Shown here in pieces: positions 1 through 51,537 of a stretch of 64,000 bases of DNA; the first letter of the stretch is position 1; every line of letters begins with the position of its first letter. This DNA is from an uncultured Gemmatimonadota bacterium (GTDB taxonomy: Bacteria; Blakebacterota; Blakebacteria; Blakebacterales; CAYUVJ01): positions 13,371-77,370 of the forward strand of contig CAZFHZ010000003.1 in NCBI GenBank assembly GCA_964519015.1, given 5' to 3'. The position numbers were made by a program, and so were the translations under genes. The notes below the pieces were generated by a model, which saw only the letters and a list, made by a program, of their open reading frames with translations, did not search any database and was not told where the DNA came from.

Positions 1-416
1 TCCAGGTAGCGGGCGCGCGCCACCGCGCCGGCGACCAGGTCCATCGCCTTGCGGGTCGCCGCGGCGCGGTCATTCGGGTGCACCCAGGCGCAGTGCTCGC
101 GCAGGTTGGCCATCTCCATGAGATAGGGATTCAGCCCCGCCTCGGCCACGCACTGTCGGAAGGTCGGCTCGTGCTGCCGCGGCGTGCATGAGGCGACCAC
201 CACCCGGTTGAGCTGGTGCACCCGGATCGCCTTCTTGATTTCATTCTGCCCCGGATCGGCGCACGTGTACTTGTTGCGCACCGCACACGCCACGTCGGGC
301 AGTGTCTCCGCGTATTGAGCGACTGCGCCGCAGTCCACCGCTCCCGCGATGTTCAGCCCGCAGTCGCACACGAAGACACCGATCCGGAGTGTGTCATCGG
401 TCTGCTTCGGGACCAT
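1..416 (-). CDS. HdrA-like protein, partial. Only the N-terminus (MVPKQTDDTLRIGVFVCDCGLNIAG...) is in the window; it has an MvhD-like Cys motif and strong similarity to the internal MvhD-like domain of the big HdrA at 2289..5387
   Basis: Start ATG at 414-416 with upstream AAGGGTGGG. Translation is paralogous to residues ~390-520 of the 2289..5387 product. Runs off the window start. Confidence 0.55.
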   Translation of the reverse strand, partial: MVPKQTDDTLRIGVFVCDCGLNIAGAVDCGAVAQYAETLPDVACAVRNKYTCADPGQNEIKKAIRVHQLNRVVVASCTPRQHEPTFRQCVAEAGLNPYLMEMANLREHCAWVHPNDRAAATRKAMDLVAGAVARARYL

Positions 417-560
417 CGGTGCCCACCCTTGGTCTCGGCGACCATCCCCCGGTGATCCACCCGCAGGACGGTTACCGTTCTAGGTCAGCGCTTCCGCGGC
501 CAGTTCGGCCACATCGCGCATCTCCATCCCGATCACCTCGTGGAGATCGGGGTCTCGCAT

Positions 561-1694
561 CTAGATCCCTATCTGGTCGCCCATTTCGGGGTCCTTCATT
601 GATAAAAGGAAATGGATCCGGCAATTGGGGCAGGCCGTCACCATGACCTGCGCCCCCGTGGACCGCGCTTCCTTCAGCCGGTCCACCTGGATGTTCTTGG
701 CGAAGCGGTCGCAGTTCGACCAGGTACCCCCGGCGCAGCAGACTGCGCCGGGGCCGTTCCGACCCATCTCGACCAGTTCGATGCCGGGGAGGGCCTCCAG
801 TACCCGCCGGGGAGCCTCGTAGACGCCGAGGTGCCGGCCCAGCCGGCAGGGGTCCTGGTAGGTCACCCGCCGCGGCTGCTCCCGCAGGTCCAGCCCGTCC
901 ATCCGGTCGGCCAGCCACTCGCTGATGTGGACCATCTCGGGCGGTCTTCCGCTCCAGAACGGAGCGTAGTCGATCCGCCAGGTGCGCAGGCACTCGGCGC
1001 AGGAGGTCACCAGCGTCTTCGCCCCGCTGGCCTCGACCAGTTCCACGTTGTGCCGGGCCAGCCGCTCGAAGTTCGCCCGGTCGCCGTTCCAGAGCAGGTC
1101 GTGCCCGCAGCAGCGCTCACGGGGGGAGACCACCGGGACCACTCCCAGCCGGTTCATCAGCCGGACCGCGGCTCGGGTGCCGGCCAGGGTGTCCATTTCC
1201 AGGTGGGGGAAAAGGGCGTCGTAGTACATCGTGCAGCCGGTCCAGTAGAAGACCTCCCCCTGTCCGGGCACGCACTCCAAATCCTTCTCCAGCCAGCCCA
1301 ATCGGTCCTGCTGGGTCCCCCCGGTCGCCATCATCCGCATCAGCGACTGGATCGCCCCTCCGTGCGGGCAGTGCGGCTCCAGGCCAGCGGTGTGGGCCAC
1401 CGCCCTCAGGTTCATCACTAGGGTGGTGTAGTCGACCTGGGCCGGACAACGCTGGCTGCACTGGCGGCAGGTCAGGCAGCTGAAGAGGTCCTCGCTCGCG
1501 AGCAGGGCCTGCACATCCCCCTGTACCGCGCTCAGCACGTGACGGCGCGGGCTGAGCGAGCCGCCCCCCCGGGCCACCGGACAGGAGGCGGTGCACTTGC
1601 CGCAATCGTAGCAAGCCCAGGCCCGGGCTTTCCGGACGGCCTCCAGGAGCCCTTTCACCCCTTCGCTCGCCATCGCCTCACCCCGCCCTGGCAC
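561..1694 (-). CDS. HdrD/GlpC-like iron-sulfur oxidoreductase: two 4Fe-4S ferredoxin motifs plus two CCG (Cys-rich, HdrB-like) domains
   Basis: CYDCGKCTASCP and CLTCRQCSQRCP motifs, followed by CCGHD... and CCAGG... CCG-domain signatures. Overlaps the upstream mvhD stop, consistent with operon coupling. Confidence 0.75.
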   Translation of the reverse strand: MPGRGEAMASEGVKGLLEAVRKARAWACYDCGKCTASCPVARGGGSLSPRRHVLSAVQGDVQALLASEDLFSCLTCRQCSQRCPAQVDYTTLVMNLRAVAHTAGLEPHCPHGGAIQSLMRMMATGGTQQDRLGWLEKDLECVPGQGEVFYWTGCTMYYDALFPHLEMDTLAGTRAAVRLMNRLGVVPVVSPRERCCGHDLLWNGDRANFERLARHNVELVEASGAKTLVTSCAECLRTWRIDYAPFWSGRPPEMVHISEWLADRMDGLDLREQPRRVTYQDPCRLGRHLGVYEAPRRVLEALPGIELVEMGRNGPGAVCCAGGTWSNCDRFAKNIQVDRLKEARSTGAQVMVTACPNCRIHFLLSMKDPEMGDQIGI

Positions 1695-2292
1695 CGGCCA
1701 GGGGGCTCTGACCGAGCGCCCGCACCTGGTCGGTGAACTCGTTTATGACCTGCGCGAACCGCGACCCTTCGGCGGCGCTGATCCACTCCAGACGCAGGCG
1801 CCCTTCCTCCAGCCCGAGCATCCGGACCAGCTGGCGGGTGATTTCGTATTGCTCTACCGCCCGCTCATTGCCCGAGATGTAGTGGCAGTCGCCGAAATGG
1901 CAGCCGGAGACGAGCACCCCGTCGGCCCCCTTCTCGAAGGCCCGCAAAACGAACGATGGCTGCACCCTTCCCGAACACATCACCCGGATGATCCGGAAGT
2001 GGGGCTGGTGCTGGATCCGGGAGACCCCCGCCGTGTCGGCCCCGGCATAGGAGCACCAGTTGCAGGCGAAGACCACGATCCGGGGATCCCCATTCGGGAA
2101 GGGACGGGGCTCCGATCCGCTGGAGCCCGGCGCCCGCTTCGCCGTGCGCTTCTTCCCCGCCCCTTGCTTCGTCACGCGATTCTTCCCGGTCCCCTGCCTG
2201 GCCGGTGTCTTCTTCGCCACGGCCTTCTTGGCCGCCCGTTTCTTCGGACCACTACCGGCGGCCCGCTTCCTTGATCCAGCCGGGGCGGTCAT
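1678..2292 (-). CDS. mvhD: MvhD-type (methyl-viologen-reducing hydrogenase delta-like) electron-transfer subunit with a Lys/Ala-rich N-terminal tail
   Basis: IVVFACNWCSYAGADTAGVSRIQHQPHFRIIRVMCSGRV...GCHFGDCHY is the MvhD signature. ATG at 2290-2292 overlaps the hdrA TGA stop (ATGA). The first ~75 aa are KKRAAKKAVAKK-type low complexity. Confidence 0.75.
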   Translation of the reverse strand: MTAPAGSRKRAAGSGPKKRAAKKAVAKKTPARQGTGKNRVTKQGAGKKRTAKRAPGSSGSEPRPFPNGDPRIVVFACNWCSYAGADTAGVSRIQHQPHFRIIRVMCSGRVQPSFVLRAFEKGADGVLVSGCHFGDCHYISGNERAVEQYEITRQLVRMLGLEEGRLRLEWISAAEGSRFAQVINEFTDQVRALGQSPLAGARAG

Positions 2293-5200
2293 GGTCCCTC
2301 CTCGGCCAGCACGGCATCGATCATCGCAACCATCTGGCGTTCGGTGAAGTGGCGGGCGGTGATGGCTCCCGAGGGGCACCAGGTGGCACAGGTGCCGCAT
2401 CCCTTGCAGAGGGAGGCGTTGACCTGCGCGGAACGTTGTCCGGGTGCGACCTCGAAGAGAGTGGCCGCGTGGTAGGGGCAGACCTCGGTGCAGGTTCCGC
2501 ACGCCCGGCAGAGGTCGATATCCACAACCGCCACCGCCGGGTTCTGGCGCACCCGGTCCCAAGCGAGCAGCACGGAGGCCTTGGCCGCCGCCGCCGAAGC
2601 CTGGGCGACCGTGTCCACAATGTCCTTCGGGCCCTGCACGGTGCCGGCCAGGAAGACCCCCTCGACCGCCGTCTCCACCGGGGCCAGCTCCGGGTGACGC
2701 TCCAGGAAGAACCCGTCCGAACCCAGGCTCGTCTTGAGCAGGTCGTGGAAGTGACGGGTATCCTCCGCGCGCGGCTTCATGCCCACCCCCAGCACGACCA
2801 GGTCGGCCGGGGCCTCGACCGTCACCCCCAGCAGCTCGTCACGGCACCGCACCGCGACCGCGCGGTCGCGGCCGATCACCTCCGGCTTCTCCCCTGATGG
2901 GATCCGTACGAAGAGGACCCCCGCGGCCCGCGCCTCCCGGTAGAGTTCCTCGGCGCCGGTCGAGATGGTTCGGATGTCCCGGTAGAAGACGGTGCAGTCG
3001 ATGCCACCGCTGGCCAGGTTGAGGGCCTGCTTGATGGCCGTCGGACAGCAGTAGCGCGAGCAGCCCGGGTAGGCTTTGGGATCGCGCGAACCCACGCAGA
3101 GGATGAAGGCGGCACTCTTCGGACGTCCCCCCTCCGAGTTGAGCGGGTCGAGGATGCTGCAGAAGAGCCGCTCCAGCTCCTCGTTGGTGATGACGTTGTG
3201 GAACTTCCGGTAACCGTACTCGGCGATGGGTTCGTAGAGGTCGGCGCCGAAGGCGAGCACGATCGCCCCCACCGCGAGCTCCCCCGCCCCCACCCCCTTC
3301 AGGATCACCCCGAAGTTGCCCATGAATCCGTCGATCGAGGCCACCTCGGTATCGAGCAACACCTGCGCGCCGCTCGCCCGGAGGCGGGCGATCTTCTCCG
3401 CCAGCACCTCGGCGGCGGAGCGCATGTTAGGATAGAGCAGCTTCAGGTCGGGACCGAGCAGCCGGCCTCCCAGCCGGCCGGTCTTCTCGACCAGGGTGAC
3501 CGGGAATCCCTGGACGGCCAGGTCGGTGGCGGCCTGGATGCCGGCGATCCCGCCGCCGACCACCAGCGCGGCCCGCGTCATGGGCATCTCCCCCGCCTCG
3601 AGCGGCTCCAGGTGCCGGGCCCGGGCCACTCCCATGCGGATCAGGTCCCGCGCCTTCAACTGGGCCTGTTCCCGGTGGGTGGCATGCACCCAGGTGCACT
3701 GGTCGCGGATGTTGACCATCTCGAAGAGGTAGGGGTTGAAACCGATCCGCTCGAGGGTCTGGCGGAAGATCGGTTCGTGGGTCCGGGGGGTGCAGGCGGC
3801 GACCACGACCCGGTTGAGCCGGTGCTCACCGATCATCGCGACCAGTTCCTCCTGCCCGGTCGAAGAGCAGGCGAAGAGGTGGGTCCGGGCGACCTCGACG
3901 CCCGGCAGACCGGCCGCATATTCAGCCAGCGCCTCGCAGTCCACCACCCCGCCGATGTTCACCCCGCAGTTGCAGACCATCACCCCGATGCGGGGTGTTC
4001 CCGACAGATCGAGCGGGGTAACCGTCTCCGGTTCCTCCTCGATCCGCTCCCCACAGAGGAAGAGTCCGGCCCGGGCGGCTGCCGCCGAAGCCTGGGCCAC
4101 CGCGTCGGGGATGACCTGCGGTCCCACCGCGCTGCCGCAGACGAAGATCCCCTCACGGGCCGTCTCCACCGATGAGACAGCCGGATCGCGGGGGGCGACG
4201 AAGCCGTAGCGGTCGGTCTCGATGCCCAGGATCCCGGCCAGCTCGGCTGCTCCATCGTTCGGCGCGGCCGCTACCGAGAGGACGACCAGGTCGGCCGGTA
4301 TCCTCATCTGCTCGCCGTTAAGGGTGTCCTCCACGTGGACGAGCAGAGTGCCGTCCTCGGGGACCGTCTCGATCTTGGCCGGCCGCCCCCGAATGTACCG
4401 GGCGCTCTCTTCCTCGTAGGAGCGGCGGACGAAATCATCGAAGCCCTTCCCAAAAGCGCGCAGGTCGGTGTAGAGGATGGTTACATCCTCGATGGCGGGA
4501 TCGTGCTGGCGCACCAGCATCGAGTCCTTGACCGCGTTCATGCAGCAGAAGCGGCTGCAGTAGGGACGGCCCCCCTCCCCCCGGGCCCCCACGCACTGGA
4601 CGAAGACCATCCGCTTCGGAGTCTTCCGGTCGGAGGGACGCACCACGTGGCCGCGGGTGACCCCCGAGGCGTTCAGCATCCGTTCCAGCTCCAGGCTGGT
4701 CACCACGTCGGGGTAGCGCCCGTAGCCGTAGTTGCCCAGGACCCGGGCGTCGAACTCCTGGAACCCGATGGCCACCAGGATTGCTCCCACGTTCCGCTCG
4801 AGCAGCTCCGGCTGCTGATCGAAGTCGATCGCTTCGACGTCGCAGACGCTCAGGCAATGGTTGCAGACCAGGATCTTCTTGTTCAGGCACGACTCCCGGT
4901 CGATGACGTAGGCGGCCGGGACCGATTGGGGGAAGGGGCGGTAGATCGCTTTGCGGGCCTTCAGGCCGACGTCGAACTCGTTTCCCCCCACCTGCGGGCA
5001 CGCCTCCTCGCATAGCCCGCAGGCCACGCACACGTCCTCCTTCACGAAGCGCGGATTCCGGCGCACCTGTACCCGGAAGCCGCCGGCCTCGCCTTCACAG
5101 CCGACCACTTCGGCATTGGTGACCAGCTCGATCAGTGGATGCCGACCGGCATCCATGGCCTTAGGCCCCAGGATTCATATCGAGCAGTCCATGGTGGGGA

Positions 5201-5387
5201 AGGTCTTGTCGAGTTGGGCCATGCGTCCGCCCAACGACGGCGACTTCTCCACCAGGGTCACCGGTATGCGCGCGTCGGCCAGATCGAGGGCCGCCTGGAT
5301 GCCGGCGATACCACCGCCGATGACCAGGGCTCGGTCTCCCCGCAACTCTTCGACGAGCTCGATGATGTCCTCAGGTTCCTGATCCAT
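2289..5387 (-). CDS. hdrA: Heterodisulfide reductase subunit A-like giant fusion protein (HdrA FAD/Fe-S module, MvhD-like domain, second FAD/ferredoxin module). Candidate selenoprotein: in-frame TGA at 5175-5177
   Basis: N-terminal exon-like ORF 5178..5387 (MDQEPED...[16 protein letters not shown]...[16 protein letters not shown]) ends at TGA and continues in the same frame ([23 protein letters not shown]...) into ORF 2289..5156. The HdrA family consensus here is TFPTxDCSxC-ILAPK, so the TGA sits where Cys normally is. RBS AAGAGGA lies upstream of the ATG at 5387. Downstream there is a second GGGIAG FAD motif, several CxxCxxCxxxCP motifs and an MvhD-like block. Confidence 0.7.
5136..5155 (-). 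promoter_or_regulatory. SECIS-like hairpin in the mRNA, 20 nt downstream of the in-frame UGA of hdrA: 8-bp stem UGGAUGCC/GGCAUCCA with apical loop GGUC
   Basis: Perfect 8-bp inverted repeat read from the sequence. Spacing from the UGA is in the range used by bacterial SelB-dependent SECIS elements. Confidence 0.4.
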
Positions 5388-5437: not shown

Positions 5438-6034
5438 TCAGTCGCTCTTGGCCGGGGTGGCGGCCACTTCGGCCTCCTCGCCCGTGGTCCCACCTCCGTA
5501 CGTCTTCTGCCAGTGCTCGTAACCGGCGTCGAAGGCTCTCAGATTGAGCTTCTCGGTCCCCTCTGGGACCGACTCGGCCACCGCCTGGCGCATCAGATCC
5601 GGATCGATGATGCCGGTGACTCCGGCCATGAAGCCCAGCATCACGATGTTCTGGACGATGACTCGGCCCAGATCCTCGGCGATGCGGGTCGAGGGGACCC
5701 CGTAGGCCTTCTGCTTCTTGGCCGGGTCGGGGGTGACCAGGTCACTCTCGTAGATGAGGGCACCGTCCTCGGCCAGCTCGTCCTTGTACTTGTCGTAACC
5801 CTCACCGGACATGATGACGAAGTAGTCGGGGCGGCGGATGTAGGGGTAGAGCACCTCCTCTTCTGAGAGCACCAGGGTGGCGCTGCAGGCGGACCCCCGG
5901 GCTTCCGGTCCGAAGCTCTGGATCATCGTGGCATGGTGGCCGGCGTTGATGGAGTAGGCCCGGCCCAGGATATAGCCCAGCAGGACCGACCCCTGGCCGC
6001 CCAACCCGGTGATGCGGAATTCGGTCTTAGCCAC
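5438..6034 (-). CDS. korC: 2-oxoacid:ferredoxin oxidoreductase, gamma subunit
   Basis: GTG start preceded by [17 protein letters not shown]...[12 protein letters not shown]... is the PorG/KorC family signature. Confidence 0.8.
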
Positions 6035-6923
6035 GGAGGTATCCTCCTTCCGGGGGCATCGGCACGAAATCGTCCCCGAGCTTGCTCCGATGCTGCTCGT
6101 GGTTGAGCTTGATCCAGTCGGGCTTCTCCTCGTCCACGAACTTCCCGCAGACGATCTTCTCCTGGAACTCAATGGCCACTTCCCGGGTGTCGGCCCCGTG
6201 CCGGATCTCCGCGTTGTCGTGGTAGTACTGCATCAGGTTGAGCCCGGTACCGAGCTTGTTGCGTCGGGCATAGAGCGTCGAGCAGGGTGTGATCACCTCG
6301 ATCAGGCGCAGTCCCTTCTTGGGCAGTGCCTCCAGCATCGACTTGGTGAGCCGCCGGATGTGCAGGCAGGTCCAGCGGGCCACATAGGTTGCCCCGCACG
6401 AGGCCACCAGGTGCGGCAGGTTGAAGGGGGGTTCGTAGCTGCCGTAGGGCATGGTCGAGGAGATGGAGGTCATCGGCGAGGTGGGAGCGTTCTGGCCTCC
6501 CGTCATGGCATCGGTGAAGTTGTTCACCAGGATGACCAGCAGGTCCATCTGCCGGCGGCAGGCATGGATCAGATGGTTGCCCCCGATACCCGAGAGGTCG
6601 CCGTCCCCGGAGAAGACCGTGACATTCAATTCGGGGCGACCGAGCTTGAGCCCGGTGGCGAAGGGGATGGCCCGTCCGTGGGTGGTGTGGAAGGCGTCCA
6701 GTTTCATGTAGCCGGCCACCCGGCCGGTACAGCCGATCCCGGAGACGATGGCCACTTTGTCCAGGTCGAGGTGGGATTGTTCCAGGGCCGTGGCATAACA
6801 CTTCACCACCGTCCCTATCCCGCAGGTCGGACACCAGATGTGCGGCATCCGGTCCATGCGGATGAAGGGAGCGATCGGGTGCTCTTCGGCCCGCGGCTGG
6901 GACTGCTCGACGGTCGCGCTCAT
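6027..6923 (-). CDS. korB: 2-oxoacid:ferredoxin oxidoreductase, beta (TPP-binding) subunit
   Basis: PHIWCPTCGIG...GIGCTGR...GDGD...GGNHLIHA TPP/Fe-S motifs. Confidence 0.85.
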   Translation of the reverse strand: MSATVEQSQPRAEEHPIAPFIRMDRMPHIWCPTCGIGTVVKCYATALEQSHLDLDKVAIVSGIGCTGRVAGYMKLDAFHTTHGRAIPFATGLKLGRPELNVTVFSGDGDLSGIGGNHLIHACRRQMDLLVILVNNFTDAMTGGQNAPTSPMTSISSTMPYGSYEPPFNLPHLVASCGATYVARWTCLHIRRLTKSMLEALPKKGLRLIEVITPCSTLYARRNKLGTGLNLMQYYHDNAEIRHGADTREVAIEFQEKIVCGKFVDEEKPDWIKLNHEQHRSKLGDDFVPMPPEGGYLRG

Positions 6924-8079
6924 TTGACGGCTCCCATGATGGCGTCACAGATGTCCTGCGGGTCGTGGACCCCGCCTCCGGCGTGCGGCACCCCGATGGC
7001 GGCGCACTTCCCGGCGGCGCAGCGTTCGACCTCCAGTACGTACTGGCCCAGGTTGATCTCCGGGACCACGAAGGCCTTCACCTTCCCGGCCAGTTCCCGG
7101 ATGCGCTTCTCCGGGAAGGGCCAGATCACGATCGGCCGGATATAGCCCACCTTGACCCCCTTCGTGCGGGCCATGGAGATGCCCATCCGCGCCACCCGGG
7201 CGGTGATCCCGAACGCGATGACGACCACCTCGGCGCCGTCGGTTTCTTCCTCGTCGAAGCGGACGATCGCCTCGGCGTTCTTCCGGATCTTGTCCACCAG
7301 TCGGGGCACGAGCTCCTTCTGGGCTTGCTCGCTCATGACCGGATAGCCGCGGTAGTCGTGGGTCAGTCCGGTGGTGTGGAAACGGTAACCGTCGCCGGCC
7401 CGGGCGAAGTCCGGGATCAGGCCGCCGTTGAGCTGGTAGGGCCAGTACTCCCCGGGTTTCCGGTCGGTCAGCCGGCGGGGCACCACCTCGATGGCGTCGG
7501 CCTCGGGGATGACCACCTTCTCCGTCATGTGGCCCACGCATTCGTCGAGCAGGAGCTGGACGGGCACACGGTACTGCTCCGCGAGGTTGAAGGAGTCGAT
7601 GGCCAGGTCGAAGGCCTCCTGGGGGGACTTCGGGCTGAGGGCGATGATCTCATAGTCCCCGTGGGAGCCCCAGCGGGCCTGCATGATGTCCCCCTGCCCG
7701 GTCATGGTCGGCAGCCCGGTGGAGGGTCCGCCCCGCTGGACGTTCACCACCACGCAAGGGGTCTCCATCATCGCCGCCAGACCGATGTTCTCCATCATCA
7801 GGGAATAGCCGGGGCCGCTGGTGACCGTGGCCGACTTGGTGCCGGTCCAGGCGGCACCCACTACGGCGGCCATGCTGGCCAGCTCGTCCTCCATCTGGAT
7901 GAAGGTGCCCCCCATGGTGGGGAAGCGGCGGGCGATCCGTTCGACGACCTCGGTGGAGGGGGTGATCGGATAACCGGCGGTGAAACGGCAGCCGGCGGCC
8001 ATCATCCCCTCACTGCAGGCGAAGTCACCATCCAGGTAATGGGCGCCGGTCAGTACGCCCGCGGGATCGGCTTTCAAGT
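6920..8079 (-). CDS. korA: 2-oxoacid:ferredoxin oxidoreductase, alpha subunit
   Basis: GYPITPSTEV...FIQMEDELAS...TSGPG motifs. Start chosen at TTG 8077-8079 behind AAGGAGGAG; the longer ORF to 8179 has no RBS. Confidence 0.8.
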
Positions 8080-8126
8080 TCTCTCCTCCTTCTCCACAGG
8101 TCTGTCCCTGGGCCGGGACCGTCCGC

Positions 8127-8408
8127 CTAGTGGGCCTGCTCGGCCGCCCCAGCGGGCAGCGAGACGCTGAAGATCGCAAAATCGGGACAGATCATCTCGC
8201 ACAGCGTACAGTTCACGCACTCCCCCTCCTTGACGATCTTCGGGGGATGGTATCCTTTCCGGTTGAACGCCTCGGAGACGGCCAGCACCCCCTTGGGGCA
8301 GTACTCCACGCAGAAGCCGCACCCCTTGCACTGGTCCTCGATGATCCGGACCGTGCCGTGCGGGATCCGTACCTGATCGGCATCCAGCGGTGTGCGCCAG
8401 TACTTCAT
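8127..8408 (-). CDS. korD: 2-oxoacid:ferredoxin oxidoreductase delta subunit (2x[4Fe-4S] ferredoxin)
   Basis: CKGCGFCVEYCP and CVNCTLCEMICP motifs. ATG at 8406-8408 overlaps the marR stop (ATGA). Confidence 0.75.
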   Translation of the reverse strand: MKYWRTPLDADQVRIPHGTVRIIEDQCKGCGFCVEYCPKGVLAVSEAFNRKGYHPPKIVKEGECVNCTLCEMICPDFAIFSVSLPAGAAEQAH

Positions 8409-8971
8409 GTCGGAATCCCCTTCCCGGAGACCGTTGCACGGTCCTTGATGAACGGACATCCCCCCCGCACCTCCCCAACCCGGCAATCGACCGAGAGGTA
8501 GGCGGCGCAACGCAGGCAGGGGCCGCCGCTCTCCGGATCGAGGTCGAGCAGGGAGAGGGAGATTCGCTCCAGCAGGTCGGCGAACGCATCGAGCTCGCCG
8601 ACGTCGAACCGGTCGAGCAGGGGATAGAGCCGCGCCGACTTGAGTTCCTCGTAGTTCAGGACGATGCGCCGCCCGACCGGGCTCAAGGAGAGGACCGTGG
8701 ATCGGCGGTCGTCGGGAGCCGGGGCTCGCACCACCAGCCCGTGTCGCTCCAGTTTGTCGATGTTCTTGGTGGCGGCCGGGGTCGAGACCCCCAGGAAAGC
8801 GGCGATGTCCCCGACGTGGTGCTCGCCGTTAAGGGACATCAGCTTGAGCAGGTGGAACTGGGAGAGGGTGAGCGGAAAGGGACAGACCTCCCGGATCAAC
8901 CGGGTCTCCAGGATATCCCGCACCGCCGAGGCGAAGATATGGCTGTTGCGGAGCAGCCGGAGGTAGTCCAT
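8405..8971 (-). CDS. MarR-family transcriptional regulator with a C-terminal Cys-rich extension (CLRCAAY...C...C)
   Basis: Winged-HTH MarR core (LTLSQFHLLKLMSLNGEHHVGDIAAFLGVSTPAATKNIDKLERHGLV). Translationally coupled to korD. About 40-aa tail with four Cys. Confidence 0.8.
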   Translation of the reverse strand: MDYLRLLRNSHIFASAVRDILETRLIREVCPFPLTLSQFHLLKLMSLNGEHHVGDIAAFLGVSTPAATKNIDKLERHGLVVRAPAPDDRRSTVLSLSPVGRRIVLNYEELKSARLYPLLDRFDVGELDAFADLLERISLSLLDLDPESGGPCLRCAAYLSVDCRVGEVRGGCPFIKDRATVSGKGIPT

Positions 8972-9067: not shown

Positions 9068-9337
9068 GATCGACCCGAGACTAGCCATCCGCTCCAAACC
9101 CTGTCAAGCAAAACTGAGGTAGATTTGGCCGCAGCGATACCTTGCGCCCGAACAACACGTTAGGAGTACTAATTAGGGACCCCTCGACCAGGGCCCGGCA
9201 GCCGCCTCCGGGATCGGCCGGAGACAGCACCGGGAGGAGCCCGCGAGCCGCCCGAACCCCGCTTGACCACCCCCCTCCCGGTACATAGACTGCACCTGCA
9301 GGCACGACACCCATCGCATCACATCGAGGTTCGCGTC

Positions 9338-9877
9338 ATGAGTGATCGGTACGAAGTACGGCTGAGCGGCGCAGGTGGCCAGGGGCTCATCCTGGTCGGC
9401 AAGATCCTCGCCGAAGCCGCTGCCATCTACGACAACAAGAACGCCACCCAGAGTCAGTCCTACGGACCGGAAGCCCGAGGCGGAGCCAGCCGTTCGGAAG
9501 TGATCATCAGCGACGGGGACATCGATTACCCCAAGGCGACCCACATCGATCTGCTGCTCGCGATGACCCAGGAAGCTGCGGACAAGTACGCCCAGGACGT
9601 CAAGCCGGGAGGCGTGATCATCGTCGACACCTCCTACGTCGAGCGGGCGCCGGCCGGTGAGTTCTCAGTCCACGCCTATCCGATCACCAAACTCGCGGAA
9701 GAGCAGGTGGGACGGGCCATCGTCGCCAATATCGTGGCGCTCGGCATGATCCAGAAGATCTCCGGTATCGTGAGTGAGGATGCTATCCTGACGGCTATCC
9801 GTTCCCGGGTCCCCAAGGGCACCGAGGAACTAAACATCAAGGCGTTCCGGATCGGTCAAGAGCAGGCCGCACAGTAG
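9338..9877 (+). CDS. 2-oxoacid:ferredoxin oxidoreductase gamma subunit (second copy)
   Basis: MSDRYEVRLSGAGGQGLILVGKIL...QSQSYGPEARGG... is a PorG/KorC paralog of 5438..6034. Possible sigma70 promoter TTGACC-17-TAGACT upstream. Confidence 0.75.
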   Translation: MSDRYEVRLSGAGGQGLILVGKILAEAAAIYDNKNATQSQSYGPEARGGASRSEVIISDGDIDYPKATHIDLLLAMTQEAADKYAQDVKPGGVIIVDTSYVERAPAGEFSVHAYPITKLAEEQVGRAIVANIVALGMIQKISGIVSEDAILTAIRSRVPKGTEELNIKAFRIGQEQAAQ

Positions 9878-9898: not shown

Positions 9899-12880
9899 AT
9901 GGATCCCCTGACCACCATCGAGACCCGGGTCGAAGCGCTCGGCAACCACTACCGCAAGTATGTCGAGGTCATTCGCCGTCACGGGGAGGGCCTCTTGTCG
10001 GCTCTGGAAGCCGACGGCAGCCTGATGCAGGTGCACCTGTGGGGCTCCTCCTCGTCACCGGAGGAGGAGATGCGCGGGATTGTGCATCTCCCGGGGGACG
10101 TGCCGACCCGTATCCGCCGGTTGAGCTGTTACTACGCCGCACAATACCTCCACATGCACTTCCGGCATCTCGACATCCTCTCCCTGGAGCGGACCTCGGG
10201 AGATCCCATCCAGGGGGCCTACTTGCGGTTCATGCGCGATATCGGCAACGATTTCCGGCAGCTCACCAAGGGGTACATGGAGAACGTGCTGGAACTCTAC
10301 CTGGTCGAGGTCGAACGGCCGGAGTTCTTCATCTGCTCGGTCGGGACCCGGGCCGATCAGGATGATATCGACGTCGGTATCATCACCTCCGGCGAGGGGG
10401 ATGACGGCGCCCTCAACCGCGCCGTACAGCGCCTGACCCAGCACATGCTGGTGTACGCCACTCCTCTCCACCTCTATCTGTCCGAACACGTCGGGAATGA
10501 GCTCTATACGAGCACCATCGCGGAGTACGACGACTTCCTGGATCGCCAGATCGGTGACGTCGTGATCCTCTCCGAACTGGTCAACGCCAAGATGATCCTG
10601 GGGAGCGAGCGGCTCTTCGAACGGTTCCAGCGGGAGATCATCGCCCGTTACTTCCACGGGACCGGCTGGGACGGACGTTACCACGAGGGTTTCCTGCGCG
10701 GCATCATGGGGGAGGCCCGTGCCCTGCTGGTCAGTCCCCTCCGGTCCGAATCGGTCGCGCCCAAAGAGGACGCCCTCCGGATCATCAAGCATCTGCTCTA
10801 CGCCAAGAAGGCCCGATACGCCCTGCCCGAGGTGAACGCCTGGGACATCATGGCCGCGCTCTCCGCCCGGGAGCCCCGGCTCGTGCTCCAGTATGAGCAG
10901 CTCCACCGATCGACCACCTTCCTGGAGATGTTCAAGTTCCAGCTGCAGATGTATGTGGCCCAGGAGGACCTCTTCCGCCTCGAGGAGATCGATCCGGGGC
11001 AACGCACCCGCATCGCCGAACAGATGGGGTACGGCTCCATAGGGAAGGTCGGGGCCTGGGAGCAGCTGGTCATCGACTACTACCGTCATGTCACCGAGTC
11101 GCGTTCCATCTGTGAGTACCTGTTGCGTGACCTCACCGGGCATCTGAGTGCCGTCTCCATCTTCACCGGTATGTTCCGGGCCCGTGCCGTGCCGGGACCG
11201 GACGGGGAAACCCGGGATGTCCTGGCCCGGGACTTCATCCACACCGCCCGCTTCTTCACCGGGACCCGGTATTGGGAGGATGTCCTCCACCGGCTGGAGA
11301 CCGACCACGCCCTCCTGGACGACTTCATCGACAGCTTCGAGCGGATGGACGAGGAGGAGGCTGCCGGCACGATCGAGGAGTACGTCGGCTGGACTGAGCA
11401 CACCCCGATGACCATCATCCGGCTGATCACCCTGCTCGGCCGGCACCAGGAGAACGTGCTCGGGGAGTCTGTCTTCCAGCGCATGGTGGACTGTTTCATC
11501 GACCAGCTGGAACACATCCCCTACATCGGCGATCGTCTGAGCCGGGTCTACGGCCACTTCCCCGAATACCTGCACCGGTTCCTCAACCACCTCCCCGAAC
11601 GACACTTCGAACGGCTGGAGTCCCTGCTCGCCCGGCCCCTCATTGACAACAGCCTCAACGAGTCCCGCCGGCACCTGGGGGAGCTCTGCGATATCCACCG
11701 CTGGTCGAGCCAGTACTTCCATCGTTTCTTCGTCCGGGTGATCGCCAACCACCCCGAGTACCTGACCGCCCTCCCCTACCCCGAACAGCTGCGGACCATC
11801 TCCTCGGGGCTGCTGGCCAAGGTCGATCTCCACACCGACCTGACCCTGAAGAAGGAGGTACTGGGCGACTACTACGACCTCGAGTTCCTGCGGGTCGGGA
11901 TCGGTACGCTGCAGGGGGTGGACCTGGCCGCGACCAACCGGGAGTTCACCCTCTTCTGCGACCATTACATCCAGAAGCTCTTCGACGTCTGCTGCGAGGA
12001 GGTGGAACGGGAGAGCGGAGCCCGGGCCCCCAGTACGGACACCTTCGCCCTGCTGGCGGCCGGTGGACATGCCCGCGGACAAGCCTACGACGACGATTAC
12101 GATCTCATCGCGATCGCCCATACGGACGACGAGCAGCTGCTCGGTTATGCGACCAAGGTCATCGTCCGGATGAACCGGGAGATCCTGAGACGGGGTGTGC
12201 TCCCCCACCATCGACTGGGGGACATCCTGGGTGGCTTCGTCAGCCCCGTTTCCCAGATCGTCACCTATCTCGATTCCGGCGACGAGGAGTGCTTCATCGA
12301 CCTCTCCCAGCTGCTCGGGGCCCGGATGCTGGTCGGGAGCGGGAACATGCAGACGGTGCTCCAGGAGAAGGTGCTCGCCCCCTTCGTCGTCCAGCGTCGC
12401 CGGGAATACCTGGAGTGCATGCTGGAAGAGATCCTCCAGCGCCAGGACGAGGAACCCTCCTGCGAGAAGGGAGAGGCCTGTAACATCAAGGAGACGCGGG
12501 GGGGACTCCGGGACATCGAGGCGACCATGCTGGTGCTGAAAGCATGGCTCGGCATCACCGAACCGATAACCGAGGACGCCTTCCACGAGCTGGAGAGACG
12601 GCTGCCCGACCTCGCCGGGATCCTGCGGACGCTCCACGGCGCCATGGACGAGTTGCGTACCGTGCGTGACCTCTACCGGCTGACGGTGGCCGCCGAGGAC
12701 ACCATCATCCCGGGTTACCTGGAGCGGATCGACCGCGTCCGTCGCCTGGCCGACCCGGGCCTCGATGCGATCACGGTGGAGGGGCTCCGGCGGACCCTGG
12801 AGGCATCGGCCGGGGCCTGCGGCGCGGTGATCGAGTACCTGCGCGGTCTGCTGGCTGCCCCCGAGGCAGCCGGAGCCTGA
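9899..12880 (+). CDS. Large (993 aa) tandem nucleotidyltransferase protein, GlnE/GlnD-like (two NTase-fold motifs). Function unknown
   Basis: Two GS/GlnD-type NTase signatures: ...ICSVGTRADQDDIDVGII... (N-terminal) and ...LLAAGGHARGQAYDDDYDLIAIAH... (C-terminal, a good match to GxxxRGExxxxSDxDL). Size and bipartite layout resemble GlnE (about 950 aa). No closer recognition is possible by eye. Confidence 0.4.
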   Translation: MDPLTTIETRVEALGNHYRKYVEVIRRHGEGLLSALEADGSLMQVHLWGSSSSPEEEMRGIVHLPGDVPTRIRRLSCYYAAQYLHMHFRHLDILSLERTSGDPIQGAYLRFMRDIGNDFRQLTKGYMENVLELYLVEVERPEFFICSVGTRADQDDIDVGIITSGEGDDGALNRAVQRLTQHMLVYATPLHLYLSEHVGNELYTSTIAEYDDFLDRQIGDVVILSELVNAKMILGSERLFERFQREIIARYFHGTGWDGRYHEGFLRGIMGEARALLVSPLRSESVAPKEDALRIIKHLLYAKKARYALPEVNAWDIMAALSAREPRLVLQYEQLHRSTTFLEMFKFQLQMYVAQEDLFRLEEIDPGQRTRIAEQMGYGSIGKVGAWEQLVIDYYRHVTESRSICEYLLRDLTGHLSAVSIFTGMFRARAVPGPDGETRDVLARDFIHTARFFTGTRYWEDVLHRLETDHALLDDFIDSFERMDEEEAAGTIEEYVGWTEHTPMTIIRLITLLGRHQENVLGESVFQRMVDCFIDQLEHIPYIGDRLSRVYGHFPEYLHRFLNHLPERHFERLESLLARPLIDNSLNESRRHLGELCDIHRWSSQYFHRFFVRVIANHPEYLTALPYPEQLRTISSGLLAKVDLHTDLTLKKEVLGDYYDLEFLRVGIGTLQGVDLAATNREFTLFCDHYIQKLFDVCCEEVERESGARAPSTDTFALLAAGGHARGQAYDDDYDLIAIAHTDDEQLLGYATKVIVRMNREILRRGVLPHHRLGDILGGFVSPVSQIVTYLDSGDEECFIDLSQLLGARMLVGSGNMQTVLQEKVLAPFVVQRRREYLECMLEEILQRQDEEPSCEKGEACNIKETRGGLRDIEATMLVLKAWLGITEPITEDAFHELERRLPDLAGILRTLHGAMDELRTVRDLYRLTVAAEDTIIPGYLERIDRVRRLADPGLDAITVEGLRRTLEASAGACGAVIEYLRGLLAAPEAAGA

Positions 12881-12952: not shown

Positions 12953-13822
12953 TCAGGCGACGGCGGCCGTCTCCTCCCCGACCTCCTCGGCGACCGTAGC
13001 CGGGTAGCGGACCTCGCCCCCCAGCTGGCGGATCAGTTCCTGGTAGCGGGCCGCATACTCCGGCCGGCGCTCGTTGTGGAGGACGCCGGTGACGATCTTC
13101 CCCTCCAGCTCCTCGGGACCCATCCTGGCCGCCTTGGCCACGTCCACTGAGTTCTCCTTCTGCCACCGGAGCATATCGGCGGGAGTCCCCATCTTGTTGA
13201 GTTTCCCGTAGATGGTCGGGCAGGCGACGGTGACCTCGACCAGGCTGAAGCCGGGGTTGAGCAGTGCGTCGCGGATCAGTTTCTCCAGCCGGCGGGCATG
13301 GAAGGCGGTCCCCCGGGCCACGTAGGTGGCTCCGGCCGCGATGGCCAGCTTCGGGATGTCGAAGGCGGGGTCGAGTTGACCATAGGGTGCGGTGGTGGCC
13401 TTGGAGCCCAGCGGGGTAGCCGGGGAGACCTGTCCCCCCGTCATCCCGTAGATGTAGTTGTTCACCATCACCACGGTGAGGTCGAGATTGCGGCGGGCGG
13501 CATGGATGAGGTGGTTGCCGCCGATGGCCGCGGCATCGCCATCACCGGTCAGGATCACCACCCGCAGGTCGGGACGCTGGAGCTTCACGCCGGTGGCGAA
13601 GGGGATGGCCCGACCGTGCAGCGAATGGATGGTCTGGAAATCGACGTAGCCGGTCACCCGGGAGGAGCATCCGATACCACTGACCATGCAGATCCCGTCC
13701 TTCGACCAGCCGAGTCCATCGATAGCGCGCAGGAGCGATTTGAGCATGATGCCGTCCCCGCAACCGGCGCACCAGATATGCGGGAACTTGTCGACGCGCA
13801 GGTACTTCTCGTAGTCGAACAT
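12953..13822 (-). CDS. 2-oxoacid:ferredoxin oxidoreductase beta subunit (second set)
   Basis: PHIWCAGCGDG...GIGCSSR...GDGD...GGNHLIHA. ATG at 13820-13822 behind GGAAGGTAGGGGG. Confidence 0.85.
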   Translation of the reverse strand: MFDYEKYLRVDKFPHIWCAGCGDGIMLKSLLRAIDGLGWSKDGICMVSGIGCSSRVTGYVDFQTIHSLHGRAIPFATGVKLQRPDLRVVILTGDGDAAAIGGNHLIHAARRNLDLTVVMVNNYIYGMTGGQVSPATPLGSKATTAPYGQLDPAFDIPKLAIAAGATYVARGTAFHARRLEKLIRDALLNPGFSLVEVTVACPTIYGKLNKMGTPADMLRWQKENSVDVAKAARMGPEELEGKIVTGVLHNERRPEYAARYQELIRQLGGEVRYPATVAEEVGEETAAVA

Positions 13823-13826
13823 CCCC

Positions 13827-15020
13827 CTACCTTCCGTTCTTCCCGTTCTTGGGGTCACTCTCGAGGTTCTGGACCGTCAGCAGGATCTCCTGGGGGGTGA
13901 TCGGTTCACCGTCCACCCGGCCCTTGTGCCGGACCGGCAGGTCGCGTCCGGCCACCCGTCGTACCTCACGCACGATCATCCCCTGGTTCATCTCCGGGAC
14001 CACGATCCCGTGCAGGTGTCCCAGGTGGCGCTCGATCGCCCGGTCGGGGAAAGGCCAGAGGGTCAGCGGCTGAAGCAGTCCTACTCGCAGGCCCTGCTCG
14101 CGTCCCAGCCGCACCGCCGCGCGGGCGGACCGGGCCGTCGAGCCGTAGGCGAAGATCATGTACTCGGCGTCCTCCAGCAGGTACTCCTTGACCTTGACAA
14201 TCTCTTCCTCATAGCGCACCAGCTTGCGCTGCAGCCGCTCCAGATTGGCCGTTACCTCGACCGGTTTGCCGGTCGGGAACCCGGTCGGGTCGTGGGTCAG
14301 TCCGGTGACGTGGAAACGGTAGCCCTCCCCGTAACCGGCCATGGGCGGGATGTCCGACTCCACGGGTTCGAAAGGGCGGTAGTGGGCCGGATCGGCCACC
14401 GGTTTCGGCCGGCTCCTCACTTCCACCCGCTCGGGGATGACGAGAGACTCTTCGGTGTGTCCCACGATCTCATCGAGCAGGAGCACCACCGGGATTCTGA
14501 AGTGCTCGGTGAGGTCGAAGGCCCGGACCGTCTCATCGTAGGTCTCTTCGACCGTCGAGGGGATCAGCACGATCACAGCATGGTCGCCATGGGGCCCCCA
14601 CCGGGCCTGCATGACGTCCCCCTGCGAGGGAGAGGTCGGCATGCCCGTGGAGGGCCCGCCGCGCATGACATCGACCACGACCACCGGGATCTCGTTCATG
14701 CAGGCGTACCCGAGGATCTCCTGCTTCAAGCTGAAGCCGGGACCGCTGGTGGCGGTCAACGACCGCGCCCCGGCGATCGAGGCCCCGACCGCAGCGCCGA
14801 TGGAGGCGATCTCATCCTCCATCTGGATGAAGGTGCCTCCCCGCTTAGGGAGTTCCTCCGCCATATGTTCAGCGATCTCGCTGGATGGAGTGATCGGGTA
14901 GCCCGCATAGAAGTCGCAGCCCGCGGCCAGGGCCGCTTCGGCGCAGGCTTCGTTCCCGGCCATGAAACGCCGGGTCCCCTTACGGATGGTCCCGGCCGGT
15001 GCAGAGGATCTGTCGTTCAT
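13827..15020 (-). CDS. 2-oxoacid:ferredoxin oxidoreductase alpha subunit (second set)
   Basis: GYPITPSSEI...FIQMEDEIAS...TSGPG, paralogous to korA at 6920..8079. Confidence 0.85.
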   Translation of the reverse strand: MNDRSSAPAGTIRKGTRRFMAGNEACAEAALAAGCDFYAGYPITPSSEIAEHMAEELPKRGGTFIQMEDEIASIGAAVGASIAGARSLTATSGPGFSLKQEILGYACMNEIPVVVVDVMRGGPSTGMPTSPSQGDVMQARWGPHGDHAVIVLIPSTVEETYDETVRAFDLTEHFRIPVVLLLDEIVGHTEESLVIPERVEVRSRPKPVADPAHYRPFEPVESDIPPMAGYGEGYRFHVTGLTHDPTGFPTGKPVEVTANLERLQRKLVRYEEEIVKVKEYLLEDAEYMIFAYGSTARSARAAVRLGREQGLRVGLLQPLTLWPFPDRAIERHLGHLHGIVVPEMNQGMIVREVRRVAGRDLPVRHKGRVDGEPITPQEILLTVQNLESDPKNGKNGR

Positions 15021-15047
15021 GTGGGTACTCCGCGGGATGTCGTCGTC

Positions 15048-15257
15048 TCAGGTCACCGTGATGGCAAAATCAGGGCAGAGCAGTTCGCACTGGAGACAGC
15101 CTGTGCAGGCGGCTTCGTCGACCACGACGGCGACGAGACCTCTCATGTCCAGGACCCCGGGTTTGCAGAACTCGACGCAGATCCGGCAGCCCTTACACCA
15201 GTCCTCCCGGATCTCGATAACATGTTTACTTGCCTTGGTCGTCGTGCTCTCCGGCAT
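15048..15257 (-). CDS. 2-oxoacid:ferredoxin oxidoreductase delta subunit / 2x[4Fe-4S] ferredoxin (second set)
   Basis: CKGCRICVEFCKP and CTGCLQCELLCP motifs. 69 aa. Confidence 0.75.
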   Translation of the reverse strand: MPESTTTKASKHVIEIREDWCKGCRICVEFCKPGVLDMRGLVAVVVDEAACTGCLQCELLCPDFAITVT

Positions 15258-15349
15258 GGTGGACTCCCCCGAAATAGGTTGCCTGAGCGCAATATGGGAG
15301 GCCGTATCGACGAACGACAGCGGATAACGGACAAGAACGCCTTTTTTTA

Positions 15350-15369
15350 CACCTGTCGTGTAACAGGTG
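15350..15369. promoter_or_regulatory. Inverted repeat CACCTGT-N6-ACAGGTG preceded by a T7 run, about 90 bp upstream of the second korD. Candidate operator or atypical terminator
   Basis: Read directly from the sequence (ctttttttaCACCTGTcgtgtaACAGGTGc). Confidence 0.3.
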
Positions 15370-15392
15370 CTTCTCCCGGCCCGGCCGGGGGC

Positions 15393-15611: not shown

Positions 15612-15624
15612 GCTCCTCCTTCGC

Positions 15625-15822: not shown

Positions 15823-15896
15823 CGTCTCCACGTACGGACTCCTGTCGAGGGGATTCGTATCGGGTGAGGCCAGTATAGGGGGGGGCGGTGCGGGGC

Positions 15897-16502: not shown

Positions 16503-16503
16503 C

Positions 16504-49988: not shown

Positions 49989-51443
49989 CTATCGTTTGAC
50001 GGCGGCCCGCTTCACCGCCCGGGCCACCAGAGCGGGCAGACGGCGCTCCTGGTCGGGCAGAACCGACCGGAGCTCCAGGATGACTTCTTCCTCCGACACG
50101 CGCGCGATCACCGGGGGGGAACCGGCCCGGAGGGCCCGCTCCAGCCGGGCGGCGGTCACGCCACCCCCTTGTGGTGTCAGGACGATGCCCCAGCCCGGCA
50201 GGGTCACCTCCGGGCTGGAGCCCCCGCCCAGAGCCCCCCGGGTGGCGGCGGTCCGCACGCGCACCATCCGGCCCGCGCCCGCTTCCCGCAGGGCCTCCGG
50301 CAGCGCCCGGGCGAGGGCCCGGGCCCGCGCCTTCAATTCCCCCTCCGGCGTCCGGGCCAGCCGGCGCACGGGCACTTGCATGTCCTCTTCCCCGGTCAGG
50401 TAGAGACGCAGGGTCGCTTCCAGGGCGGCGATCTGCAGTTTCTCGAGCCGCACCGCCCGGGCCAGCGGGTTGACCTTCAGACGGGCCACCCACTCCTCTT
50501 CCCCCAGCACGATCCCGGCCTGGGGGCCGCCCAGCAGCTTGTCCCCGCTGCAGGTCACCAGGGTCACCCCCGCCTCCAGCGAGGCGGCCACGGTCGGCTC
50601 GTCGGGCGCTCCCAGCGACCCCGGATCCTCGAGCACCCCGCTCCCCTGGTCGTCGAGCACCGGGACGCCGCGGCGGCGGCCGAGTTCGGCCAGATCGGCC
50701 AGCGGGACCTGGTGCACGAACCCCTGCTGGAGGAAATTGCTCTGGTGGACATGGAGGATGAGCGCGGTGCGCCGTCCGATCGCCCGCTCGTAGTCCTTCA
50801 GGTGGGTCTTGTTGGTGGTCCCCACCTCGACCATGCGGGCCCCGCTGCGGGCCATGATCTCGGGCATGCGGAAGGATCCGCCGATCTCGATCAGGTGGCC
50901 GCGGCTGACGATCACCTCCCGTCCCTCGGCCAGGGTGTTGAGCGCCAGCAGCACCGCGGCGGCGTTGTTGTTGACCGCCAGGGCGGCCTCCGCCCCGGTG
51001 AAGACGGTCAGGAGTTCCTCCAGCCGGGCCAGCCGGCTCCCCCGGGTACCCGCCGTCAGGCCGTATTCCAGGTCGGTGTAGCCGGCGGCGGCCCGGACCA
51101 AGGCCTGCACGGCCTCCCCGGCCAGCGGGGCACGCCCCAGGTTGGTGTGCAGCAGTACCCCGGTAGCGTTGATCACCGGACGGGGATGCGGTTCGAGCAG
51201 GCGCTTGGCGGCGGCCGCCGCCTCCCGGCGGGCCCGGGCCGAGGCCTCCGCGCGGTCGGTCGGGCGCCATCGGCCGGCCTCGATGTCCGCGCGCAGACCG
51301 GCCAGCACCCTTCGGACCAGGTTCGTCCGGGCGGCCCCGCTCAGACGGGCACCCGGGCCGGAGGTAAGCACCGCCAGCACCTCGTCGGTCGGCGGCAGAT
51401 GCCGCAGCAGGGTCCGTGGATCCTTGTTCGAGGGCCTGCTCAT
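49989..51443 (-). CDS. selA: L-seryl-tRNA(Sec) selenium transferase (selenocysteine synthase)
   Basis: VINATGVLLHTNLGRAPL, PLP-lysine block CSGDKLLGGPQAGI. Size about 484 aa. Confidence 0.8.
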   Translation of the reverse strand: MSRPSNKDPRTLLRHLPPTDEVLAVLTSGPGARLSGAARTNLVRRVLAGLRADIEAGRWRPTDRAEASARARREAAAAAKRLLEPHPRPVINATGVLLHTNLGRAPLAGEAVQALVRAAAGYTDLEYGLTAGTRGSRLARLEELLTVFTGAEAALAVNNNAAAVLLALNTLAEGREVIVSRGHLIEIGGSFRMPEIMARSGARMVEVGTTNKTHLKDYERAIGRRTALILHVHQSNFLQQGFVHQVPLADLAELGRRRGVPVLDDQGSGVLEDPGSLGAPDEPTVAASLEAGVTLVTCSGDKLLGGPQAGIVLGEEEWVARLKVNPLARAVRLEKLQIAALEATLRLYLTGEEDMQVPVRRLARTPEGELKARARALARALPEALREAGAGRMVRVRTAATRGALGGGSSPEVTLPGWGIVLTPQGGGVTAARLERALRAGSPPVIARVSEEEVILELRSVLPDQERRLPALVARAVKRAAVKR

Positions 51444-51537
51444 ACCCGGAAGGTAACCGTGCGAACCGACAGGAATACGGGGAAATTCAGGGTTGCCTCC
51501 CGCTCCTCCATCCTGCAAACTCTATAGTCCCTGACGG

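Follow-up and report, generated by a model that had tools for sequence, protein, structure and literature searches.

The HdrA proteins, whose motif is CxxU, form a well-known family of selenoproteins and have been found in Methanococcales, Methanopyrus, Asgard archaea, Deltaproteobacteria and Clostridia (PMC1794560, PMC13188914), and NF040770 is the HdrA entry of the selenoprotein table in PMC13188914. The cryo-EM structure of the Methanococcus maripaludis Hdr-Vhu-Fwd complex (9SFI) places selenocysteine (Sec) 197 and a neighbouring cysteine, which probably form a selenylsulfide, between the flavin adenine dinucleotide (FAD) and a [4Fe-4S] cluster (PMC13518236). Fusions of hdrA to hdrA were noted among bacterial Sec-HdrA genes in 2006 (PMC1794560), and a BamE containing a UGA and a selenocysteine insertion sequence (SECIS) is reported from Desulfococcus multivorans (PMC5109826). 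BamE of Geobacter metallireducens, the HdrA-type bifurcating subunit of the class II benzoyl-CoA reductase BamBCDEFGHI, is described as a fused HdrA dimer in which TrxR1 holds the FAD that bifurcates electrons and passes the low-potential electron on through a Cys59-Cys62 pair, and TrxR2 is structural; its partners are the MvhD-like BamF and the HdrBC-fusion BamD (bioRxiv 10.64898/2026.04.10.717634). Here we examine a fused hdrA gene with an in-frame UGA, lying directly downstream of genes for a 2-oxoacid:ferredoxin oxidoreductase (KOR), in a 64-kb stretch of contig CAZFHZ010000003.1 from an uncultured Gemmatimonadota bacterium (the window; positions are counted from its first letter). From alignment and comparison with related loci, we put at roughly 0.9 the probability that the UGA at 5177-5175 is a Sec codon, that it has a bacterial SECIS and that the HdrA fusion which carries it is BamE-like.

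The gene lies on the minus strand, where an ATG at 5387 opens a 70-codon open reading frame (ORF) that ends in MDCSI and runs into the TGA. Past the TGA the frame is free of stops down to 2289, giving 1033 codons, the TGA included, and a protein of 1032 residues. The UGA stands at the second Cys of the DCSxC motif. It aligned with Cys197 of the Methanothermococcus HdrA (5ODC, 5odc_A) and with X197 of 9sfi_A, which is Sec197 of M. maripaludis HdrA (PMC13518236); the aligned motifs are DCSI-UGA-ILGPK in the window, DCSICILAPK in 5odc, DCAMXILAPK in 9sfi and DCSICIEAPK in Chloroflexota orthologues. The 70 codons 5' of the UGA encode the GxGxxG FAD-binding beta-alpha-beta unit, so that the 955-residue downstream ORF by itself is incomplete, missing the start of its Rossmann fold.

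The predicted product is a fused HdrA dimer, with Cys68-x-x-Sec71 in module 1 at the position of the methanogen Cys194/Sec197 pair. Residues 17-447 make up this TrxR-like module, with its inserted ferredoxin domain and the C68-x-x-U71 pair, and align end to end with HdrA residues ~143-568 (phmmer, E=2.9e-136 to 5odc_A). An HdrA N-terminal-like domain follows (residues ~460-600), then a second TrxR-like module (residues ~604-940) that has no inserted ferredoxin and carries N-M-R-S-A-A in place of the Cys pair, and finally a C-terminal 2x[4Fe-4S] domain (residues ~950-1012). Together, residues 452-1032 align with the whole of HdrA, residues 11-655 of 8rvu_a, minus the inserted ferredoxin at ~242-325 (E=2.4e-140). 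The best family profile was NCBIfam NF040770 (HdrA2), which scored 1053 bits where 1100 are needed, and a score just under the cutoff marks the protein as a member of the HdrA family rather than an equivalog of methanogen HdrA/HdrA2.

Like M. maripaludis HdrA, the window protein would have its Sec at this position, a TrxR-like FAD domain and an inserted ferredoxin. Unlike methanogen HdrA, it has no N-terminal domain before module 1 and is fused to a second copy that lacks the Cys pair. In overall build, going by the published description, it is like BamE: both are dimers of about 1000 residues with a redox pair near the N-terminus (Cys59-Cys62 in BamE, Cys68-Sec71 here) and a TrxR2 that lacks bifurcation features, both have inserted and C-terminal ferredoxin domains, and both are accompanied by an adjacent MvhD-like adaptor and an HdrBC-fusion subunit. 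In Geobacter, BamF has the Sec and BamE a Cys-Cys pair, whereas in the window it is HdrA that would carry the Sec.

Downstream of the UGA, beginning 19 nt past it and within the same ORF, the transcript can form the hairpin UGGAUGCC-GGUC-GGCAUCCA, with eight Watson-Crick pairs and a 4-nt loop. The minimum free energy (MFE) is -13.7 kcal/mol for the 22-nt hairpin of the window and -8.2 for its 16-nt core. This core, GAUGCC-GGUC-GGCAUC, lies at 5138-5153, with 5153-5148 paired to 5143-5138 and the apical loop at 5144-5147, and the distance from the UGA to the first loop base is 27 nt. The consensus of Zhang and Gladyshev for bacterial SECIS (bSECIS) elements describes a stem of 4-16 bp closed by a loop of 3-9 nt; one or both of the first two loop bases are G (usually G then G/U), the apical loop is 16-37 nt away from the UGA, and the MFE does not exceed -7.5 kcal/mol (PMC13188914, Fig. 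2). The hairpin agrees with this consensus throughout: it lies inside the coding sequence, its 4-nt loop starts with G-G, its spacing is 27 nt and its energy is -13.7 kcal/mol. An earlier note on this DNA, made from its letters and ORFs, had proposed a Sec-HdrA on the grounds of an in-frame UGA at a conserved HdrA Cys, a frame continuing unbroken into the 955-residue ORF, an 8-bp GGUC hairpin at a spacing workable for a SECIS and a selA gene in the same window. The reading frame, the replaced Cys, the place and form of the hairpin, its spacing and the identity of selA were all borne out by the analyses given here.

To assess the hairpin we compared 105 distinct bacterial TGA contexts. A hairpin of the form GAUGYC-GGUM-GRCAUC lies 21 nt past every bacterial TGA, and all 105 contexts align over 66 nt without any indel, so that the 27-nt spacing from UGA to loop is constant. 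Codon usage within the same genes served as background. Codon +8 is GAT in 104 of 105 contexts (GAT is 30% of Asp codons in the background), codon +10 is GGT in 103 (16% of Gly) and codon +12 is CAT in every one (28% of His). Codon +9, for which the background does not apply, is GCC or GTC in 104. At codon +11 we found CGG 76 times, CGA 19 times and AGG 10 times, and never CGC or CGT, although CGC makes up 41% of Arg codons in the background. Neighbouring codons vary synonymously; CCN at +4 and +13, for example, occurs in all four forms. The fixed third positions are exactly those that the GAUGYC/GRCAUC helix and the GGUM loop need, which argues for selection at the RNA level.

Pairing within the stem was maintained across these contexts. 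Codons +9 and +11 occur as GCC...CGG (69), GTC...CGA (19), GTC...AGG (10) and GTC...CGG (6), and never as GCC...CGA; the stem pair that they form is C-G in 70 contexts, U-A in 19 and U-G in 16, and is unpaired in none. The remaining five core pairs are formed at 104-105 of the 105 sites, and RNAalifold, run independently, predicts only the 6-bp helix. The 8-bp stem of the earlier note thus stands in its inner six pairs; the outer two, paired in 38% and 74% of sites, are not conserved and we rejected them from the conserved element. Of the 105 sites, 103 have GGUC or GGUA as the loop and 2 have GGCC or GGCA, the G31 and G32 columns being invariant. Core variants with the U-A or U-G pair reach -6.1 and -6.3 kcal/mol by themselves, and hence rely on flanking pairs. 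As controls, Cys-encoding orthologues do not have the GAUGYC-GGUM-GRCAUC hairpin, and two Asgard archaeal TGA copies have no local hairpin downstream, which is consistent with the location of archaeal SECIS elements in the 3' untranslated region (UTR). We conclude that the hairpin is almost certainly a bacterial SECIS, a predicted SelB-binding element.

Two further features of this region were seen. Zixibacteria-type loci (L031-L034, L037 and L057) have the loop GGUA rather than GGUC, since their Arg codon is AGG and not CGG; GGUA always occurs with the U-G pair (GTC...AGG), and it appears as a lineage-specific variant that keeps G-G-U. A mini-hairpin, GGCC-UAA-GGCC, directly follows the UGA at 5156-5166 on the minus strand. 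Since it needs AAG GCC at codons +5/+6 and is missing in the AAR ATG subset, we rejected it as part of the SECIS and regard it as probably incidental.

The codon at the Sec site was then compared among relatives. All of the best 120 database homologues, at 69-97% identity, are called from MDAGRHP or a few residues later, that is, from just past the UGA; they come from metagenome-assembled genomes (MAGs) that carry the labels Phycisphaerae, Planctomycetota, Acidobacteriota, Verrucomicrobia and Thermoanaerobaculales. An exact look-up of the 955-residue product itself gave no record. Among species-representative genomes, 597 stretches matched, and 79 loci were taken for the codon comparison. In these loci the Sec position is TGA 116 times and TGC/TGT 19 times, and TAA/TAG does not occur. 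TGA is present in every bacterial locus of the clade at 49% identity or more, in lineages that include Planctomycetales, Phycisphaerae, Terriglobia, Holophagae, Thermoanaerobaculia, Zixibacteria and Gemmatimonadota, and also Myxococcales, Fibrobacteraceae, Ignavibacteria, Cytophagia, Eisenbacteria and Desulfobacteraceae. A Cys codon is found in orthologues at 41-47% identity from Chloroflexota, Rokubacteria, Nitrososphaeria and Asgard archaea. Those of Chloroflexota, Rokubacteria and Nitrososphaeria share the kor-hdrA-mvhD-hdrCB operon, and a common operon for Cys and Sec forms identifies them as a true Cys/Sec orthologue pair, which is a standard criterion for selenoproteins independent of SECIS (PMC13188914). 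The DC of the motif is kept throughout the sites that the motif search picked up; L022 has one site that reads YCST-TGA.

Other arrangements of Sec-type UGA codons were also observed. In two Asgard (Promethearchaeota) loci, L064 (4132) and L069 (4187), TGA stands at the corresponding position of a paralogue of HdrA (DCAI-TGA and DCSI-TGA), next to a fused HdrA copy with Cys. In some genomes the fused Sec-HdrA is duplicated in tandem, giving three Sec-UGA sites per operon, each with a SECIS hairpin: L025 (10210, 13432, 20271), L053 (10210, 13530, 20190) and L034 (6985, 11610, 17022).

Several observations weigh against this interpretation of the UGA. In the window sequence taken alone, the hairpin is not rarer than chance: perfect 8-bp hairpins with a loop of 3-9 nt number 31 in the window, which is 67% G+C, about 8 of the 31 have some TGA 16-37 nt upstream, and the z-score of the 86-nt fold against shuffles is just -2.2. 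Rfam gave no match to the hairpin, either with the whole window at the gathering threshold or with 5050-5250 at E up to 10; its lone match, atpB, was taken as chance. As the hairpin is unremarkable in a single sequence, its significance must come from comparison with relatives, and there most stem positions are invariant, covariation comes from one pair only, and nucleotide conservation is partly due to the conserved amino acids D-A/V-G-R-H-P. In addition, Pfam and NCBIfam scans of the ~50 ORFs of the window found neither selB nor selD, and ARAGORN found no tRNA-Sec (selC) in the window. ARAGORN also found none in 60 related loci. The window does encode SelA, the L-seryl-tRNA(Sec) selenium transferase, which scores 501.7 bits against a cutoff of 267.9 for the equivalog TIGR00474; the true start of selA is probably nearer 51443 than the start of the longest ORF.

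We considered whether the TGA might be a true stop, leaving either a 70-residue FAD-binding stub and a 955-residue protein that starts at MDAGRHP, or a pseudogene. Gene callers and NCBI annotation do treat it as a stop in every relative, and an in-frame ATG lies 7 codons past it. This ATG is not universal, however, as codon +7 is ATC, ATT, ATA, CTG or others at many sites, and it is the synonymous-site hairpin that is conserved rather than any Shine-Dalgarno-like spacing. Nor could the N-terminal stub form a Rossmann fold by itself. Decay or gene fission would not be expected to leave always TGA, and never TAA/TAG, at one conserved Cys codon in 114 bacterial sites, two paralogues and many phyla, and we consider a true stop very improbable. 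As TGA differs by one base from TGC and TGT, and the window is a single unverified sequence, a mistake in sequencing or assembly had to be considered; the earlier note had named a sequencing error as something that could overturn its proposal. This explanation is effectively refuted, since 60+ genomes and metagenomes that were assembled independently have the same TGA, relatives with HdrA 97%, 95% and 84% identical among them; TGA is moreover always accompanied by the SECIS hairpin, which the Cys-encoding orthologues lack. An error here is barely conceivable.

A further explanation is that the UGA is translated without selenium, through a near-cognate Trp or Cys tRNA or as a reassigned sense codon, with the hairpin aiding read-through or pausing instead of binding SelB. 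Downstream structures can stimulate stop-codon read-through in other systems, and selB, selC and selD, as noted, were not seen within the 64 kb. On the other side, TGA is the stop of 29 of the 39 Pfam-supported genes of the window, and a scan of the window for other in-frame TGA codons with coding-like flanks returned only the HdrA site; a TGA candidate at 17493 proved to be merely two adjacent genes in one frame. With TGA as a normal stop and no further in-frame TGA, a reassigned code is excluded. The only known role of SelA, moreover, is the synthesis of Sec-tRNA(Sec), the site is the known Sec position of a characterized HdrA (PMC13518236), and the loop bears the G-G/U signature of bacterial SECIS elements (PMC13188914). 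Selenium-free read-through therefore seems very improbable to us, and we favour the reading of the UGA as a Sec codon. The gene would then be a further member of an already known selenoprotein family, one that is split or truncated by gene callers and in public annotation.

The fused hdrA is part of a long operon (see the table), the order of which, completed from relatives, is MarR, korD, korA, korB, korG, fused HdrA, mvhD, hdrCB fusion, HdrA-MvhD, (Zn-ribbon), hdrC and hdrB. The order korDABG, fused HdrA, mvhD, hdrCB, second HdrA is found in L080, whose fused HdrA is 97% identical, and in most of the 79 loci, in Sec and Cys forms alike; mvhD has the same position in nearly all related loci long enough to show it, and the position of the HdrC/HdrB fusion is conserved as well. 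The second HdrA leaves the window ~120 nt before its own predicted Sec codon. In L080 this gene (14337-16799) contains DCSI-TGA and then the same GAT GCC GGT CGG CAT hairpin; an MvhD domain is fused to its C-terminus, and a Zn-ribbon gene, hdrC and hdrB come after it. Both HdrA genes of L080 are split at the TGA by the gene caller. In most related loci the second TGA is ~5.2 kb downstream of the first.

Features of the window that bear on the fused HdrA and its operon. Positions are those of the window; all features are on the minus strand.
Feature	Position	Strand	Evidence or remark
Fused double-HdrA gene, complete, predicted selenoprotein by read-through	2289..5387	(-)	Translation; Pfam and NCBIfam matches; PDB alignments of both halves
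UGA predicted to be read as selenocysteine, residue 71	5175..5177	(-)	Alignment to 5odc_A/9sfi_A; codon counts in relatives
Cys68 codon, partner of the predicted Sec71 in a CxxU redox pair	5184..5186	(-)	Motif DCSI-U
Bacterial SECIS hairpin (predicted SelB-binding element), 8 bp and GGUC loop	5136..5155	(-)	Fold energies, codon fixation, covariation, pair counts, RNAalifold
korDABG-type 2-oxoacid:ferredoxin oxidoreductase genes, directly upstream	5438..8459	(-)	Pfam POR_N, PFOR_II, TPP_enzyme_C, POR
MarR	8971-8405	(-)	First gene of the minus-strand order
KorD-like delta ferredoxin	~8127-8408	(-)	Translation
KorA alpha	6920-8179 (longest ORF)	(-)	NCBIfam 2-oxoacid:acceptor oxidoreductase alpha, 544.5 bits against cutoff 411
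KorB beta	6027-6923 (longest ORF)	(-)	
KorG gamma	5438-6172 (longest ORF)	(-)	
MvhD/FlpD-like [2Fe-2S] adaptor, BamF-like position, immediately downstream	1678..2286	(-)	Pfam FlpD E=2.9e-52; NCBIfam VhuD and HdrA2 C-terminus
Fused HdrC/HdrB-like protein, 2x[4Fe-4S] and two CCG domains, BamD/TfrB-like	561..1694	(-)	Pfam CCG, Fer4; NCBIfam TfrB, HdrC
Second, canonical HdrA, 5' part (N-terminal [4Fe-4S] domain)	3..479	(-)	Translation
selA, L-seryl-tRNA(Sec) selenium transferase	49989..51518 (longest ORF)	(-)	Pfam SelA E=4.8e-129; TIGR00474

This setting differs from those of the described Sec-HdrA genes. Methanococcales HdrA is archaeal, has its SECIS in the 3' UTR and works with Vhu/Fdh and separate HdrB and HdrC; the window gene is bacterial, has its SECIS in the coding sequence right after the UGA, is accompanied by KOR, MvhD and an HdrCB fusion, and lies in a window with no signs of CoM/CoB metabolism. 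The Sec-HdrA genes known in Deltaproteobacteria and Clostridia (Syntrophobacter, Syntrophus, Moorella, Carboxydothermus and others) have the same bacterial-type UGA and downstream in-frame SECIS, often with mvhD/frhD and a gene for a GlpC/HdrD-like Fe-S protein in the same cluster (PMC1794560). Their operons, hdrA-frhD-frhG-frhA, are hydrogenase-linked and often have Sec in FrhD and GlpC too, whereas the window operon is KOR-linked and its MvhD and HdrCB-like genes contain no UGA; the host lineages are also different, being here Planctomycetota, Acidobacteriota, Zixibacteria and others. With respect to the Geobacter system, no BamB/BamC (tungsten AOR) or BamGHI (NuoEFG-like) was found in the window or in the L080 operon, which have instead the four-subunit KOR together with a second HdrA-MvhD and an HdrC/HdrB set. 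The absence of BamB/BamC/BamGHI and the adjacency of KOR indicate a protein of BamE-like build that is not a benzoyl-CoA reductase subunit.

The earlier note had called a KOR-linked, fused Sec-HdrA a context not seen before, which was overstated, given that fusions of this kind were already published. The KOR linkage did fare better: we found no description of the KOR-Hdr operon, or of Sec-HdrA in Planctomycetota/Acidobacteriota, in the open-access literature, which is weak evidence of novelty. The operon is in any case widespread in public MAGs and not special to this window.

Other genes of the window were noted in passing. A second 2-oxoacid:ferredoxin oxidoreductase set, with gamma at 9263-9877 (+) and beta and alpha at 12953-13858 (-) and 13827-15020 (-), flanks a 993-residue protein (9899-12880, +) with a weak match to GlnD/GlnE-type nucleotidyltransferases; the same arrangement occurs in L080 and several related loci. 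Further along, at 15897-17481 (-) and 17491-18649 (-), a ferric-reductase-like membrane protein and a molybdopterin oxidoreductase form an MsrQ/MsrP-like pair that adjoins two adjacent AhpC/TSA-redoxin genes, neither of which has an in-frame TGA.

By the established bacterial pathway, SelB carrying Sec-tRNA(Sec), which would be made by the window-encoded SelA, may bind the GAUGCC-GGUC-GGCAUC hairpin, with its apical loop 27 nt past the UGA, and deliver Sec there, yielding one 1032-residue protein instead of the 70-residue stub. If the window protein behaves like M. maripaludis HdrA and Geobacter BamE, Cys68 and Sec71 would cycle between selenol/thiol and selenylsulfide, and could relay electrons between the bifurcating FAD of module 1 and the nearby [4Fe-4S] cluster. 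Gene order suggests that the fused HdrA may work with the co-operonic MvhD and HdrCB-like subunits; on the same grounds, redox exchange of these Hdr-like subunits with the upstream KOR is probable, if speculative.

These results have consequences for how such genes are annotated and found. In the public records examined, the fused HdrA and the downstream paralogue are all split or truncated at the UGA, and many Planctomycetota, Acidobacteriota and Zixibacteria MAG reconstructions consequently have a broken HdrA and miss two selenoproteins per operon. The pattern UGA-N21-GAUGYCGGUMGRCAUC is an unusually uniform SECIS over phyla and two paralogues; it may serve as a search pattern, and as a natural test set for recognition by SelB. 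The part played by the Cys-Sec pair beside the bifurcating flavin is an unresolved mechanistic point in HdrA enzymes (PMC13518236), and a conserved operon with naturally occurring Sec and Cys orthologues provides a route to its study.

Selenocysteine is the least novel part of this locus, which draws its interest chiefly from the KOR-Hdr operon, uncharacterised and widely conserved as it is. The linkage to KOR suggests a partner in HdrA-type electron bifurcation that has yet to be studied. We tentatively raise the possibility, which we hold to be less likely than not, that the korDABG-Hdr operon encodes an undescribed flavin-based bifurcating or confurcating complex with KOR in place of BamBC or hydrogenase. 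If so, a KOR-Hdr complex could couple 2-oxoacid oxidation or reductive carboxylation to a disulfide or high-potential acceptor, and would exist in a Sec form in Planctomycetota, Acidobacteriota, Zixibacteria and others and in a Cys form in Chloroflexota, Rokubacteria and Nitrososphaeria.

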